Shown here piece after piece: positions 2,594 through 6,239 of a DNA stretch of 6,239 bases. Below the pieces are notes generated by a model that worked only from the letters and a program-made list of their open reading frames with translations, did not search any database and was not told the DNA's origin. Position 1 is the stretch's first letter; the number at the start of each line of letters is the position of its first letter. Position numbers and translations under genes: made by a program. Origin of the DNA: a virus (Duplodnaviria > Heunggongvirae > Uroviricota > Caudoviricetes); the IMG/VR virus record IMGVR_UViG_2706794664_000014; one strand, 5' to 3'.

Positions 2594-2793
2594 TGTTATG
2601 TATTAAATTCGAATATTTGACAGATAAAATGATTAAGCATGTATCAGACCTGCTCATCAAAGAAGGTGGTTTCGGTGATGCTTGCAATCCAAAAGATATC
2701 TTCATTCATGCCACCAGCCCAAACGCAACACTAAAGACAGCAGTTACAGCGGAATGGTTTGAACGAAATAAAGCGGAATTAGGTTATTGGTAG
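2593..2793 (+). CDS. Hypothetical small protein (66 aa)
   Basis: ATG 2593-2595 overlaps the upstream TAA (TAATG coupling); GGAG at 2584-2587 with 5-nt spacer; open to TAG at 2791-2793. The six-frame track starts this ORF at 2560, but the RBS supports 2593. Confidence 0.45.
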   Translation: MLCIKFEYLTDKMIKHVSDLLIKEGGFGDACNPKDIFIHATSPNATLKTAVTAEWFERNKAELGYW

Positions 2794-2830
2794 TCCGAGA
2801 CTTTAAGAGAAATTAGAAAAACAGCTTATC

Positions 2831-2951
2831 AGACGCTCTCAATCGCATTCTAACGCAAAAAACTATCTTATTTTAGGGTGGGTAATACCACTGTACAGGC
2901 TACCCCTGAAAAAGACTGTTTAGCTCGTTACAGAGCGATTGAGGAGGTCTG
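2831..2951 (+). repeat. Intergenic inverted-arm element, copy 2 (left arm 2831-2862, variable centre 2863-2917, right arm 2918-2951)
   Basis: Arms near-identical to copy 1 while the centre differs in sequence and length (55 versus 32 nt). As RNA the arms could pair into a roughly 17-bp imperfect stem (cagacgctctcaatcgc with gcgattgaggaggtctg) plus a further taacg/cgtta extension. Confidence 0.7.
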
Positions 2952-2971
2952 GTAAAAAGGAGATTTTAAAA

Positions 2972-3295
2972 ATGAACGAATATGAATTACAGATTTTCAT
3001 TGATAGCGACACTGCTATGATGGTGCAGGCTTTCGCTGATTCCGGTGTATCAATTGACCTTGATAAATTACTAAAGCTAATGGCTGAAAACTCAGAAGAA
3101 ATTGAAGACTTTATTCAGGAAATTGAAACTGGTGAACCGCGTTTTATGTTTCCTGTTACCGACTCAAACATGAAGCGTCTTATTATCGAAGAAACGAACA
3201 AATACAGCGTTAGCCCTGAAAAATATCTCAAGGCGGCTATAGCAATTTTGTATAGCGATAATATTCTGGTGACGGATTCGAAGGTGGTGCATTAA
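2972..3295 (+). CDS. Hypothetical acidic small protein (107 aa, about 21 Asp/Glu versus about 10 Lys/Arg)
   Basis: ATG 2972 preceded by AAGGAG at 2958-2963 (spacer about 8 nt). The track start TTG 2939 lies inside the repeat arm and is probably not used. Open to TAA at 3293-3295. No recognisable family. Confidence 0.6.
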   Translation: MNEYELQIFIDSDTAMMVQAFADSGVSIDLDKLLKLMAENSEEIEDFIQEIETGEPRFMFPVTDSNMKRLIIEETNKYSVSPEKYLKAAIAILYSDNILVTDSKVVH

Positions 3296-3360
3296 TGGAA
3301 TTGGTGATTATCTGTTTTGTATTGATTGGTATGATTGCAGGTGCATCTATTAAAGTATAA
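3295..3360 (+). CDS. Putative 21-aa hydrophobic peptide (MELVIICFVLIGMIAGASIKV)
   Basis: ATG 3295-3297 overlaps the last base of the upstream TAA; strong SD AAGGTGG at 3281-3287 with 7-nt spacer; single hydrophobic helix-length peptide; TAA at 3358-3360. Below the ORF-track cutoff, found by reading the sequence. Confidence 0.3.
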   Translation: MELVIICFVLIGMIAGASIKV

Positions 3361-3384
3361 ATGTTACCAATCTGTTAAAAGCTG

Positions 3385-3413
3385 TTGACAAACAACCTTG
3401 AGCATGACATAAT
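3385..3413 (+). promoter_or_regulatory. Sigma70-type promoter: -35 TTGACA (3385-3390), 17-bp spacer, extended -10 TGaCATAAT (3405-3413)
   Basis: Consensus -35 hexamer, optimal 17-bp spacing, -10 CATAAT preceded by TGn, AT-rich upstream region. Predicted start around 3420. Confidence 0.5.
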
Positions 3414-3425
3414 TGTATATATGGG

Positions 3426-3450
3426 GGAGAGCAATTCTCTCTTATTTTTT
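3426..3450 (+). promoter_or_regulatory. Promoter-proximal hairpin plus U-tract (GGAGAG-caatt-CTCTCT then tatttttt)
   Basis: 6-bp stem with one G-U pair, 5-nt loop and a T-run, about +6 to +30 from the predicted start. Candidate pause or attenuation element. Confidence 0.3.
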
Positions 3451-3582
3451 CTTTCAATAATCCGATGGATGGATATTCTGAGTTGGAAAGGTGCAATGCT
3501 TTTCGTCCTAGCCTTTCAGGTTGGTCTGAGAGGCTATCTCAAAAAGTCTTTGTTCATTCATTATTGAATCCTTTACAGCTTT

Positions 3583-3610
3583 GCCCTAATCATGAGTTAG
3601 GGCTTTCTTT
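3583..3610 (+). terminator. Candidate intrinsic terminator (stem gccctaa / ttagggc, 7-nt loop, tttcttt)
   Basis: 7-bp perfect stem at 3583-3589 and 3597-3603, followed by a T-rich tract at 3604-3610, about 190 nt downstream of the predicted start. Confidence 0.45.
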
Positions 3611-3680
3611 AAGAGTTTTTAAACAGAGCTTTTAAAGAAAGTTTTCCTGAAACTTCGTTAACGTTATAAGCAAACCTCCA

Positions 3681-3717
3681 AAGCCCTTCACAGATTATGT
3701 TTAGGGCTTTTCTTAAT
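3681..3717 (+). terminator. Second terminator-like hairpin (aagccct ... agggctt then ttcttaat), related to the first
   Basis: Shares ttagggcttt(t)ctt with the 3583-3610 hairpin; 7-bp stem with a 15-nt loop. Also overlaps a long-range inverted repeat, ttaatagagcatc (3712-3724) with ggtgctctattaa (3769-3781). Confidence 0.3.
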
Positions 3718-3810
3718 AGAGCATCTTTAATAAATCGTTAAGTCATCTTCTAAGTGTATTGGCGTTGAAGGTGCTCTATTAAGAAATAACCACACTTAGA
3801 GGAAATTATA

Positions 3811-4521
3811 ATGACAAACGATTTATATATTAACGGTAAAAAGGTTGATAGCTTCGGAGACTGGTCACCACAGGGTGAACATCCGCTACATACTATTCAG
3901 CGTCAAGAGCATGACAAGCGCATTGAGCTTGAGCAAGAGCTAAAGATGTCACCAAAGGTAATTTCCTTTGTGTCTCCTGAGCCTCAAGAAATGCCTGATA
4001 TCTGCAAAACTGAAGCACTATTTGAGCTTGAGCGTGAATATTACCCAGCTTTAAAATCACAGCGTCTTAGACTTGATGTCGCTTACGATGCTGTTAAGAA
4101 CTTCGAAGAAACCTCGAAACCTTCAGAATATGATATTGCTTACGAGATTAAGTCAAACCCGTTTATCTATTATGAAGGAAACTTTAATGATGGTTTTGGT
4201 ACAGCGATTGAAGACGTTCCTAAAGTTCTTCAAAGTATCCCTGAAGGGTTCCGGTTAATTGATGTCAGACAAGCATTAAGGGGTTCTGGTCAATTTATTC
4301 TGATGACTGATAAAACAGATGAAGAGATTCTTCAGTTAGCTGAAGCTAATTTGACTAAGCATTATTCCGGTAAACTGGATAAGTTAAAGCAAAAGCTTAA
4401 AAAAGAACTTGATACTATGAAAGAACTTGTTAGTGAATATGAGTCGCAGAAGAAGATTGCTTTGATGGCTGATATTGAGCAGTTAACGAAGATTTCTCAG
4501 AAGTATAGCAAGGCTGTTTGA
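3811..4521 (+). CDS. Hypothetical protein (236 aa) with a coiled-coil-like, Lys/Glu-rich C-terminus
   Basis: ATG 3811 preceded by GAGGA with 7-nt spacer; long uninterrupted frame to TGA at 4519-4521. No recognisable family. Sits upstream of the tape-measure-like gene, so a tail-module role is possible but unsupported. Confidence 0.7.
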   Translation: MTNDLYINGKKVDSFGDWSPQGEHPLHTIQRQEHDKRIELEQELKMSPKVISFVSPEPQEMPDICKTEALFELEREYYPALKSQRLRLDVAYDAVKNFEETSKPSEYDIAYEIKSNPFIYYEGNFNDGFGTAIEDVPKVLQSIPEGFRLIDVRQALRGSGQFILMTDKTDEEILQLAEANLTKHYSGKLDKLKQKLKKELDTMKELVSEYESQKKIALMADIEQLTKISQKYSKAV

Positions 4522-4543
4522 TTATGAATTAAAGAGGTGATTA

Positions 4544-4753
4544 ATGTTTGAAGAACGTTTAGAGACTATTCGGTCTGTTTGTGAAAACTTAAAGTTACAA
4601 ACTAAGCCAGCCTTAAGAATTAAAAACAAACGTCAAGTTATCACCTCACACAAACCAAAAACACGCAAGATTCCAAAGTGGTGTATTGACCGTATTCCTT
4701 CTGATGCTCAAATCATAGGTGAAACGGAATTACATTATCTTGTCCGACATTAA
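4544..4753 (+). CDS. Hypothetical small basic protein (69 aa)
   Basis: ATG 4544 preceded by AAGAGGTGA; the 12-mer ttaaagaggtga (4529-4540) recurs exactly at 4889-4900 upstream of the next gene. Lys/Arg-rich. TAA at 4751-4753. Confidence 0.55.
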   Translation: MFEERLETIRSVCENLKLQTKPALRIKNKRQVITSHKPKTRKIPKWCIDRIPSDAQIIGETELHYLVRH

Positions 4754-4777
4754 AAAAGAATTGGTTGGGTAAATACG

Positions 4778-4819
4778 GGGAGAGATTATCGAGTGACATC
4801 GGTAGCTCTCCCTTTTTTT
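4778..4819 (+). terminator. Rho-independent terminator (stem gggagag / ctctccc, loop about 21 nt, then ttttttt)
   Basis: 7-bp GC-rich stem at 4778-4784 and 4806-4812 immediately followed by a T7 run at 4813-4819, 25 nt after the stop of the upstream gene. Confidence 0.6.
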
Positions 4820-4909
4820 GTATGTGTGCTACGTGAAATCTGTAAAGCTAATACCCACACTGAAAAATAGAATTTACGTACAACACGCTTAAAGAGGTGA
4901 AAAATATGA

Positions 4910-6187
4910 ATGGCACAATTTAAAGTTGATGATTTTCTGATTGAGTTAAGTTTTAACTCTCAGAAAGTTTTAAAAGGCTTGGAAAAAGCCGAGAAACAAA
5001 CGATGCAGGTAGCATCACGAATTGAGAAGCGATTGAATAAGTCGTTTAGAGTTAATCCTACGCCTTTAAATGATTCTCTCAAACTAATGGAAAGAAATGT
5101 CGATAAAACTGTTTCCAAGATTGAGCAGCGTCTTAAAAACACTAGAGCGTTTAAGATTAAAACTGAAATTGAGGATACTTTAAAGCCACTTAGACAACCA
5201 AGACAGCCACGAATTAGCGGAAGCAGAGCAATCACAGCAGCTTACTCAGCGAATATGAGCAAGCTTCGTGACTTTAATCCTATGCTTGAGAAGTATTTTA
5301 AAAGCCAGTATTACAGCTTAAGCAGTAAATCCAAGACACTTGGAAACGAAACTTTTAATCGTGAGTTAGCAAAGTTAAATCAGTCTCTTCGTGAAACACT
5401 TTCTAAGTTTAACAAGACCACCAGCAAAAATAATCACAGTGAAAATGCTTCAAATAGTCTGGATGTATTAGCTACGAGTGCAATCAAAGCAGGTACAGCC
5501 ATTTATAGTTTTCAGACAGCCTTAGAAGCTTACAGGCGGATTATGGAGGTTGGTCTGAAAAAAGAAGCATCACAACGAGCGGCACAATTCGTTTTAGGTG
5601 ATGAAGGTGCTAAACGAGCTACAGAATTTGTTAAGAATCTTGCTGATAGTAGTGGTGTAGACCAGATTGAAACATTAAGCAGTTTTGCTAAGTTTTCCGC
5701 TGGTGCTGGTGATATGAATGCAGACCAGAAAGAATCCTTATTTTCTAATGTGATTGGTACATCCAGATTAATGGGGCTAAGCACCGATGAAATTAACGGG
5801 ATTTTAAAAGCTTTCGAGCAGATGGCATCTAAAGGAAAGATTCAGGCTGAAGAGCTACGCGGTCAATTAGGTGACAGAATGGCAGGTGCTTTTCAGTTAT
5901 TTGCCAGAAGTCTTGGGATGACTACGGAAGAATTAGACAAGGCCATGAAAGACGGTAAGATTCTTTCTAAAGATGTTCTTCCTAAAGTATCCGCTGAAAT
6001 GGGAAGGATGATTGATAAAGCTGGTGGATGGGAAAAGATTATTAACTCTACTCAGACGCAGTTAGGCCGCTTAAGTAATTCATGGAATAATAATCTGGCC
6101 TTAATGTTCGATGGTTCACAGGAAGGTTTAACAGACTTTACAAGGTCACTGACTAATTTACTTAATTCACTAAATAGCTGCGCTTAA
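4910..6187 (+). CDS. Phage tail tape-measure-like protein, N-terminal portion (425 aa)
   Basis: SD GAGG at 4894-4897, ATG 4910. N-terminus MAQFKVDDFLIELSFNSQKVLKGLEKAEK follows the pattern of the lambda gpH N-terminus as I recall it. Residues about 300-370 (GILKAFEQMASKGKIQAEELRGQLGDRMAGAFQLFARSLGMTTEELDKAMKDGKILSKDVLPKVSAEM) match the conserved tape-measure domain motif from memory. Low-complexity coiled-coil stretch between. Needs HMM confirmation. Confidence 0.7.
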   Translation: MAQFKVDDFLIELSFNSQKVLKGLEKAEKQTMQVASRIEKRLNKSFRVNPTPLNDSLKLMERNVDKTVSKIEQRLKNTRAFKIKTEIEDTLKPLRQPRQPRISGSRAITAAYSANMSKLRDFNPMLEKYFKSQYYSLSSKSKTLGNETFNRELAKLNQSLRETLSKFNKTTSKNNHSENASNSLDVLATSAIKAGTAIYSFQTALEAYRRIMEVGLKKEASQRAAQFVLGDEGAKRATEFVKNLADSSGVDQIETLSSFAKFSAGAGDMNADQKESLFSNVIGTSRLMGLSTDEINGILKAFEQMASKGKIQAEELRGQLGDRMAGAFQLFARSLGMTTEELDKAMKDGKILSKDVLPKVSAEMGRMIDKAGGWEKIINSTQTQLGRLSNSWNNNLALMFDGSQEGLTDFTRSLTNLLNSLNSCA

Positions 6188-6204
6188 TACCGCTACACTT
6201 TTGC

Positions 6205-6235
6205 CAGCCCATGTTTGCCTCCGGGGAATGGGCTG
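6205..6235 (+). other. GC-rich hairpin (cagcccat / atgggctg, 8-bp stem, 15-nt loop) 18 nt after the stop codon
   Basis: Perfect 8-bp inverted repeat at 6205-6212 and 6228-6235. Local GC is about 60% against about 38% for the window. Window ends before any T-tract could be seen. Confidence 0.4.
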
Positions 6236-6239
6236 ACGG

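Follow-up and report, generated by a model that had tools for sequence, protein, structure and literature searches.

A conserved, structured RNA leader with serial terminator-like hairpins and a pairing across the Shine-Dalgarno sequence ahead of the tail genes of an Escherichia and Citrobacter island

A 6.2-kb stretch of viral DNA (the window: all 6,239 nucleotides of IMG/VR record IMGVR_UViG_2706794664_000014 analysed here) contains, upstream of the tail genes of a genomic island, a non-coding stretch that carries a structured RNA leader. Judged by its sequence and that of its relatives, the element is real and far beyond chance, and is a strongly conserved, structured RNA or leader that was previously unannotated. 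Its promoter, its hairpins, its terminators and a pairing that covers the Shine-Dalgarno (SD) sequence of the first downstream gene exist, are conserved and covary. We favour, with about even confidence, the reading that this is the leader of a late (tail-module) operon that would be gated by termination and antitermination and locked at translation, with a terminated product of about 190 nucleotides (nt) accumulating as a small RNA. The comparison covers about 100 relatives with 91 distinct leaders from E. coli, Shigella, E. albertii, Citrobacter and gut metagenomes. A protein-guided scan with one genome per species returned only four loci (E. albertii, an Escherichia sp. and one Citrobacter); the diversity of leaders was drawn from E. 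coli genomes and from a scan with the promoter pattern, which contributed 91 metagenome stretches and 10 IMG/VR contigs. Lengths of proteins are given below in amino acids (aa). The features of the leader, and the terminator within the operon behind it, are:

3361-3810, plus strand: non-coding stretch of about 450 nt with the structured leader, the present finding
3361-3384, plus strand: invariant block upstream of the -35 hexamer, with a tandem TGTTA-N6-TGTTA and an A-tract
3385-3413, plus strand: sigma-70 promoter TTGACA-17-TGaCATAAT, 11 of 12 consensus positions, predicted start at 3419-3421
3421-3450, plus strand: P1, the 5'-terminal hairpin (stem 3421-3430/3436-3445, loop GCAAU), followed here by UUUUUU
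3464-3474, plus strand: (GATG)n repeat inside the RNA, 2-5 copies among relatives
3486-3504, plus strand: P3, a hairpin with a 6-bp stem and the invariant loop UGCAAUG (3492-3498)
3509-3536, plus strand: P4, a hairpin of 11-13 bp, followed by the A-rich conserved linker AUCUCAAAAAGU (3537-3547)
3583-3610, plus strand: T1, an intrinsic-terminator-like hairpin GCCCUAA/UUAGGGC (3583-3603) followed by UUUCUUU
3605-3639, plus strand: 15-bp hairpin with the T1 U-tract as its 5' arm; a degenerate duplicate of I1
3680-3716, plus strand: T2, a terminator-like hairpin (3680-3710) followed by UUUUCUU
3709-3786, plus strand: I1, a long hairpin with arms of 22-23 bp (3709-3730/3765-3786, 91% complementary)
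3792-3813, plus strand: SD region ACACUUAGAGGA (3792-3803; complement of the I1 loop) followed by the start codon (3811) of the 236-aa gene
4777-4819, plus strand: T3, a strong intrinsic terminator with 15 paired positions (hairpin 4777-4813) followed by U7, between the 69-aa and tape-measure genes

The 5' part of the RNA is centred on a core of 63 nt that consists of the two hairpins P3 and P4. All 91 distinct leaders have the same P3 loop and closing pair, and the stem is 98.9% paired, with two pairs changed on both sides. Because an invariant loop sits on a covarying stem, P3 bears the signature of a specific recognition hairpin. P4 folds in 44 of 44 variants with a free energy (dG) between -13 and -20; six of its 12 pairs are changed on both sides, and G-U pairs are numerous. 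When both hairpins are considered together (alignment A5), 95.8% of the cells are paired, as compared to 40-56% with slid partners. Eight of the 18 pairs are changed on both sides, and none of 500 shuffles reached the covariation score. A covariance model (R1) detects exactly one copy per island and scores 57-83 bits on the plus strand versus 18-36 bits on the minus strand. For the segment 3420-3612, the minimum free energy (MFE) is -60 kcal/mol (z -3.9; 0 of 200 shuffles were as good). These comparisons rely on an anchored per-helix analysis and on counts of named structures. They replaced the RNAalifold consensus, which was poor and partly wrong when computed from a plain MAFFT alignment of the 5' part, owing to modular insertions and deletions. 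A first RNAduplex scan was uninformative, with self-antisense matches and long loops.

The 3' part of the leader adds a translational layer. I1 comprises 23 pairs, is 94% paired, and has 13 of the 23 pairs changed on both sides. Its apical region is an anti-SD sequence, UCUUCUAAGUGU (3747-3758), which here is complementary over 12-13 nt to the SD region at 3792-3803. A loop-to-SD duplex of 9-13 nt occurs in 78 of 78 distinct 3' leaders (dG -13.6 to -22), and its two strands change in concert: one version pairs CUUCUAAG(UG) with (CA)CUUAGAAG/GAGG, another pairs UUCACCUC(U) with (A)GAGGUGAA. On a MAFFT alignment, 81% of the cells of this pairing are paired, and the fold of 3672-3825 (MFE -49.7, z -7.2) was equalled by none of 200 shuffles. 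The preservation of the anti-SD sequence by covariation points to a cis-acting translational operator. A model's first-pass annotation of the window, made from the sequence alone, had described a single 13-bp long-range inverted repeat in front of the ribosome-binding site. The repeat is present, and two repeats have to be distinguished, namely the arms of I1 and the 12-13 nt of loop-to-SD complementarity. That annotation missed both the sequestration of the SD by the loop of a long covarying hairpin and the invariant-loop core P3-P4. The covariance search against relatives that it had proposed spoke for the structure, because P3-P4 and I1 covary and the model favours the plus strand.

The promoter consists of a -35 hexamer TTGACA (3385-3390), a spacer of 17 nt, a -10 hexamer CATAAT (3408-3413) and the dinucleotide TG (3405-3406), and no other promoter of this quality lies within 2700-5000. 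Its pattern is kept in more than 100 loci, Citrobacter included. The 60-nt block 3361-3420 is invariant in two alignments (A1 and A2) in which the adjacent coding DNA is divergent, and the conserved unit thus reaches 24 nt further upstream than the -35 hexamer, to 3361. Its two TGTTA copies (3362-3366 and 3373-3377) are spaced in an 11-bp register, and 3361-3384 is a candidate operator or UP element. The initial transcribed sequence differs among relatives. By eye, the hexamers in 3414-3440 (TATATA, TATATG and TATGGG) have A2 and lack T6. Both TGTTA-N6-TGTTA and the initial transcribed sequence TGTATATATGAG recur at the early promoter of the island in relatives. The divergent early promoters are hidden in the window by a masked run (1348-1606) and are visible in the related locus L005 (3960-4116). 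In relatives the minus-strand early promoter reads TTAACA-18-TGgTATAAT, and the plus-strand one, TTGACA-17-TAGTAT, is a paralogue of the leader promoter. Because the motif and the TGTATATATGAG start region are common to both, the leader promoter and the early plus-strand promoter are paralogous, and they may well be co-regulated through the shared TGTTA-N6-TGTTA site.

Behind the core, two related hairpins with U-rich tails follow one another. T1 (dG -11.4, z -3.3) lies 163-190 nt after the predicted start and would yield an RNA of about 190 nt. Of the 91 leaders, 65 have T1, with 5-6 U among the first eight bases of the tail, and 26 do not. T2 (dG -14, z -3.5) lies 104 nt further downstream. 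A direct repeat common to both (D15; 3597-3615 and 3701-3719) is 84% identical, and T1 with the hairpin at 3605-3639 represents a tandem duplicate of T2 with I1. A T2-type hairpin exists in every relative except for one leader, which has a T1-type hairpin instead. Counted together, hairpins of the type GCCCU...AGGGC occur twice in 65 leaders and once in 26 (n=91), and nearly all leaders have 5-7 U in the eight bases that follow them. In relatives the interiors of these hairpins (equivalents of 3583-3603 and 3683-3707) are sometimes inverted or expanded, with the hairpin being kept; in one such flip the interior UAAUCAUGAGUUA is the exact reverse complement of UAACUCAUGAUUA.

All 10 loci examined have T3, and its inner stem covaries. 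The stem (GGGGAGAG...CUCUCCC) is similar to P1, and in some relatives T3 is followed by a GAGGAUAG..CUAUCC hairpin, the same as that after the leader start site in O157-type islands. The region between T3 and the tape-measure start contains no promoter-like site. Thus, the tape-measure and baseplate genes would be reachable from the leader promoter only across three terminators, and the conservation of T3 strengthens the case that their expression needs processive read-through. T1, T2 and T3 all combine a G+C-rich hairpin, a U-tract and conservation, as is expected of intrinsic terminators.

Every variant has P1 (3421-3445; dG -10 kcal/mol, z -3.2), and its stems covary. Since only about 60% of the relatives have a U-tract behind it, P1 is not a conserved terminator. 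It is best described as a conserved 5' hairpin, which could at most serve the upstream operon as a facultative terminator. Most of what the first-pass annotation had said of this region proved accurate: the near-consensus extended -10 promoter (11 of 12 matches, TG present), the terminator-like hairpin about 190 nt downstream (T1), and the second, related copy about 100 nt further on (T2, at 104 nt and as an 84% direct repeat). Its promoter-proximal hairpin with U-tract is P1, for which the U6 seen here is not general among relatives. In the variable zone after P1 there are optional hairpins, sizeable modular indels, and repeats of the types (GATG)n and (TTCA)n; the latter (3553-3562) has 1-4 copies among relatives (alignment A4). 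A closing helix P2 (3454-3461/3560-3567), suggested by the single-sequence MFE, was dropped, as it is not kept in relatives. The leader has no conserved reading frame: the longest ORF (open reading frame) with an ATG start ranges from 7 to 59 aa, and the peptides differ between relatives. A coding role of the 60-aa and 56-aa ORFs within 3385-3635 was rejected on the grounds that neither frames nor peptides are conserved.

From these elements we infer how transcription would begin and end, that a factor would be needed and of what kind, and how the SD might be released. In the favoured reading, a very strong sigma-70 promoter would fire at about 3420, and the transcript would fold into P1, the invariant-loop P3, and P4. 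By default, transcription would end at T1 (about 190 nt) or at T2 (about 295 nt), and a short, stable non-coding RNA would accumulate. Only polymerases that pass T1 and T2 would transcribe the tail genes, and the tape-measure and baseplate genes would require the passage of T3 too. Read-through RNA would be locked at translation by pairing of the apical loop of the 23-bp I1 with the SD of the first gene. Because T1, T2 and T3 would stop transcription and the I1 loop would mask the SD, activation of the operon should need both an antitermination signal and the unmasking of the SD. The P3-P4 core may be the RNA recognition element for antitermination, acting either as a boxB/nut-like, protein-binding hairpin or as a put-like RNA. 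Candidate routes for the release of the SD are cleavage of I1 by RNase III, a trans-acting RNA, or a protein.

Several points weigh against this scenario. No antiterminator or RNA-binding protein was identified; all neighbouring proteins are without a family in Pfam, PHROGs or NCBIfam. The same three databases gave no Q-family match for the upstream 107-aa, 21-aa, HNH and other genes. The homologues of the 107-aa protein are close, all hypothetical and without a Pfam domain, and the AlphaFold2 single-sequence model of this protein is unusable (pLDDT 43). The guess from its sequence that it is a ribbon-helix-helix regulator is unsupported, given the missing family match, the close but unnamed homologues and the low pLDDT. 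Moreover, the stability of T1 and T2 is only moderate (dG -9 to -14), and the U-tract is poor in 11 variants; read-through could for these reasons be leaky and constitutive. The pseudoknot that would lock the SD is possibly strained sterically, with a loop atop a helix of at least 23 bp and a tail 6-7 nt from the helix base, and the lock may instead be an alternative fold. A plain attenuator would not require the invariant P3 loop. Finally, the leader carries no annotation in any RefSeq genome inspected.

The window is AT-rich, with two masked runs of N. Its genes lie on the plus strand; the last line below gives a minus-strand gene that is considered further on as the possible target of a small RNA.

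Upstream part of the window, plus strand: small genes without assigned function and an HNH-like gene (profile matches)
2972-3295, plus strand: 107-aa gene (ORF list)
3296-3361, plus strand: 21-aa hydrophobic ORF, MELVIICFVLIGMIAGASIKV
3811-4521, plus strand: 236-aa gene, the first of the putatively gated operon (ORF list)
4544-4753, plus strand: 69-aa gene, lysine/arginine-rich product, the second of the putatively gated operon (ORF list)
4910-6187, plus strand: tape-measure gene (TMP_3, phrog_4036)
1175-999, minus strand: conserved gene for a 58-aa protein with a single transmembrane (TM) segment, candidate target

The gene order around the leader is kept in all annotated relatives, where a gene annotated as phage baseplate protein comes next after the tape-measure gene. 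There the island measures 12-13 kb, is bounded by a large serine recombinase, and is inserted in yecE (DUF72), between yciI and tonB, or near ymdF. In these respects it resembles a phage satellite. A survey of the accessible literature on SpLE2, on satellites with tape-measure genes and on Felixounavirus satellites yielded no description of this island family in E. coli. Of 5426 complete E. coli genomes, 477 (about 9%) have a match to the leader, and in 240 the match covers 80% or more of the leader; the Citrobacter copy retains the whole leader architecture. Proteins labelled E. coli and Shigella sonnei match the 107-aa protein at 100% identity. For the tape-measure protein (4910-6187 in the window, 7433-9481 in L005), the nearest counterparts are those of virulent Felix-O1-like myoviruses, at 28-34% identity. 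In the window the tape-measure gene is cut at about 6170 by an IS630-type end, and because of this interruption the present island copy is probably defective. The IS630-type terminal sequence (6170-6239) shares 95-98% identity with copies carried by Shigella plasmids and some coliphages. For the 236-aa and 69-aa proteins no family was found in Pfam, PHROGs or NCBIfam, and the PGAP label "transposase" attached to the former in some genomes finds no support in these databases. The 107-aa gene and the 21-aa ORF overlap by stop and start codon (TAATG), and the end of the ORF is the exact start of the invariant promoter block; relatives including Citrobacter have a TM-like peptide of 21-25 aa and divergent sequence at this position.

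Database searches of the RNA gave no hits. A cmscan of the whole window against Rfam 15 at E values up to 10 found no family, and only chance-level matches below the gathering scores (miRNA, snoRNA, CRISPR-repeat and hepatitis A pseudoknot models) were returned. Since blastn in distant mode matched 3300-3900 to none of 50,697 phage records, the leader does not appear to be borrowed from a known phage late region. Two further features of the island lie outside the leader. One is a gene-free stretch of about 1.5 kb with tandem iteron-like repeats (639-665, adjoining the masked run 665-856; 3240-3290 in L005; unit GGTCGGTTAAGAA in relatives) and other direct repeats, which may be the replication origin of the island. 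The other is a long-hairpin element of about 105-130 nt in two same-orientation copies on the plus strand (1184-1287 and 2825-2951), with arms 89-91% identical, interiors that differ, and z of -2.5 to -6.3 on either strand. The first copy is situated in a minus-strand 5' untranslated region (UTR), is missing from some islands and looks inserted. The second lies in the plus-strand operon, and the two transcripts would be mutually antisense.

Among the alternatives to a gated operon leader, a stand-alone gene for a trans-acting small RNA (sRNA) is unlikely and ranks second to it. Its body of 165-190 nt would have its own promoter and terminator and use the P3 loop as seed, and the downstream leader would be a separate translational operator; such a function, named by the first-pass annotation as an alternative (a small RNA or riboregulator), is compatible with a gated leader, as in StxS and IsrK. 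The RNA does combine an own promoter, a terminator and a conserved, single-stranded putative seed. The UGCAAUG loop and its closing pair stay invariant in 91 of 91 leaders on a variable stem, and an Hfq-type sRNA usually ends in a terminator hairpin with U-tail. Candidate targets are the 5' UTR of the 58-aa membrane-protein gene, in an arrangement resembling type I toxin-antitoxin systems, and mRNAs of the helper phage or the host. The 9-mer GTGCAATGC, which comprises the P3 loop and closing pair, recurs on the same strand at 1288-1296 within the invariant 15-mer CTGTGTGCAATGCAA. This site is found in 43 of 72 distinct islands whatever the flanks, always linked to the 58-aa gene. Read on the minus strand, the site is GCAUUGCAC; it follows the strong minus-strand promoter that relatives show and falls in a part of the 58-aa gene's 5' UTR that is mostly unpaired. 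In short-UTR variants it is only 4 nt from the SD. A type-I-like pair is thereby suggested, but the case for it is weak. The complementarity spans only 9 nt, and as both sites are invariant there is no covariation to test. By our estimate a 9-mer match is expected about 0.09 times by chance per 12-kb island, and a single match is not improbable. Furthermore, neither the site nor the 58-aa gene occurs in 29 of the 72 islands, although their loop is identical; a universal trans target of the P3 loop was rejected on this ground. The islands without the site have only a match of 7-8 nt, inside a methyltransferase gene. Complementarities of 8 nt between the sRNA and its own leader are no commoner than chance. 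An IsrK-like pairing of the short RNA with its own 3' leader was likewise discarded, as it would involve only 8-mers, of which about 10 are expected by chance with G-U pairs allowed, and these are not conserved across leader types.

It is decidedly improbable that P3-P4 is a protein-free, cis-acting antitermination RNA like put of HK022, with T1-T3 read through constitutively and control left to the promoter (via the TGTTA operator) and to the SD lock. Several features would suit this function: the core is compact (two hairpins in about 50-63 nt), it includes unpaired nucleotides that are invariant, it lies close to the promoter and upstream of three serial terminators, the promoter carries the common candidate operator, and no antiterminator protein is recognisable by Pfam, PHROGs or NCBIfam. 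On the other hand, blastn in distant mode detects no sequence similarity to any phage, HK022 included, and transcripts that read through from upstream would gain the core too, leaving T1 and T2 without a role. The architecture alone is compatible with a put-type function, which cannot be inferred from sequence. Far less probable still are two explanations of another kind. Conservation could reflect a function of the DNA, such as operators or a packaging or replication site, with the hairpins being incidental palindromes. The upstream block and the promoter are indeed invariant as DNA, close to the divergent early promoters the 9-mer is repeated on the same DNA strand, and hairpin interiors are sometimes inverted as at DNA palindromes. 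This view is very hard to reconcile with the strand-asymmetric G-U pairing and compensatory changes, with the much higher score of the covariance model on the plus strand, with U-tracts that follow the hairpins on that strand only, and with an anti-SD/SD complementarity that tracks the ribosome-binding site. A riboswitch or RNA thermometer, which would sense a ligand or temperature and control the terminators and the SD, is the least credible candidate. A long, structured and conserved leader with a terminator and SD sequestration would fit, but no Rfam riboswitch or thermometer family was matched even at E values up to 10, and no conserved antiterminator helix that competes with T1 or T2 was found. 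The large modular insertions and deletions and the variable tetranucleotide repeats inside the RNA are unlike a ligand pocket, and I1, with about 23 bp, is far too stable for a thermometer.

The gated and translationally locked leader thus remains our favoured reading, and it would place the tail module (tape measure and baseplate) of an apparent satellite of virulent phages under the control of one RNA. This RNA is widespread and covaries strongly, but RNA databases do not contain it and RefSeq leaves it unannotated. How three terminators and an SD lock are overridden would show how the island senses its helper, and could reveal a new antitermination RNA or protein. The features to be altered are compact and easily mutated, namely the promoter, the P3 loop, T1-T3 and the anti-SD sequence. 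A bolder proposal, which we hold to be rather improbable, is that P3-P4 represents a new class of antitermination RNA in undescribed Escherichia and Citrobacter satellites that parasitise virulent Felix-O1-like myoviruses. It would act alone like put or be bound by a protein of the satellite or helper, and the short RNA would also be an antitoxin-like regulator of the 58-aa membrane protein through the invariant loop. If so, the basic 69-aa protein, which is encoded between T2 and T3, would be a candidate binder and create a positive-feedback switch, and a single RNA would couple satellite immunity, induction and tail-gene expression.

Several known systems share parts of this architecture. 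The nut site of phage lambda (boxA/boxB), which acts with N, and the put sites of HK022 are promoter-proximal RNA hairpins that act in cis on the transcribing polymerase. The leader resembles them in its small promoter-proximal hairpins, with an invariant loop on a covarying stem upstream of serial terminators. In contrast to lambda nut, the P3 loop has 7 nt (UGCAAUG) and is not a GNRA-like pentaloop, no boxA-like sequence was recognised, and no N-like gene was identified; the basic 69-aa protein as its counterpart is only a guess. In the immunity systems of satellite P4 (CI RNA with seqA, seqB and seqC) and of P1 and P7 (c4 RNA), a constitutive RNA derived from a leader silences genes by premature termination. 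A helper-dependent mobile element kept silent by a leader RNA and premature termination is also what is predicted here. Unlike in the P4 CI/C4 family, however, there is no match to the Rfam C4 family, and no island contains a reverse-complement copy of the 9-mer, the only repeat being same-sense. In the control of repZ of IncB and IncI-alpha plasmids, the loop of an upstream hairpin pairs at the ribosome-binding site. The loop-to-RBS pairing found here is similarly conserved with covariation; it differs in covering the SD itself and should therefore repress rather than activate.

The first-pass annotation had likened the locus to the lambda PR'/6S RNA/tR' arrangement and had recognised no Q-like gene. 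The likeness in layout holds in every relative examined, with a strong promoter and an intrinsic terminator within about 200 nt ahead of late or structural genes. In the lambdoid scheme the short RNA (6S RNA in lambda, StxS in Stx phages) accumulates by default, as is predicted here, and such a by-product can serve as a regulatory sRNA. Searches against Pfam, PHROGs and NCBIfam bear out that no Q-like gene is recognisable in the window or in full-length relatives. In contrast to the lambda system, no Q-binding or pause element was recognised in the leader and no sequence homology was detected, whereas it has two tandem terminators, a third one inside the operon, and a hairpin that sequesters the SD. 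Its host is a small serine-recombinase island with Felix-O1-like tail genes and not a lambdoid prophage. The analogy with lambda PR'/tR' thus appears to hold for layout only, and membership in the Q-dependent class fails. Judged by analogy, the closest functional counterparts in the literature would be StxS and IsrK. StxS of Stx phages is a by-product of termination downstream of PR' that was turned into an sRNA (PMC7547250). In the IsrK locus of the Salmonella Gifsy-1 prophage, one promoter gives rise to a short sRNA and to a read-through mRNA that is inactivated by structure; the locus feeds into antitermination control, and the short isoform pairs with the long one and activates it (PMC4825925). 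A short terminated RNA and a translationally masked read-through RNA are predicted for the leader as well. It differs from IsrK in that complementarity between the short RNA and the 3' leader does not exceed chance, and in that no sequence or Rfam relationship exists. The leader is thus a variant of the known scheme of a terminated leader in front of late genes, to which an SD lock and an unexplained invariant hairpin are added.

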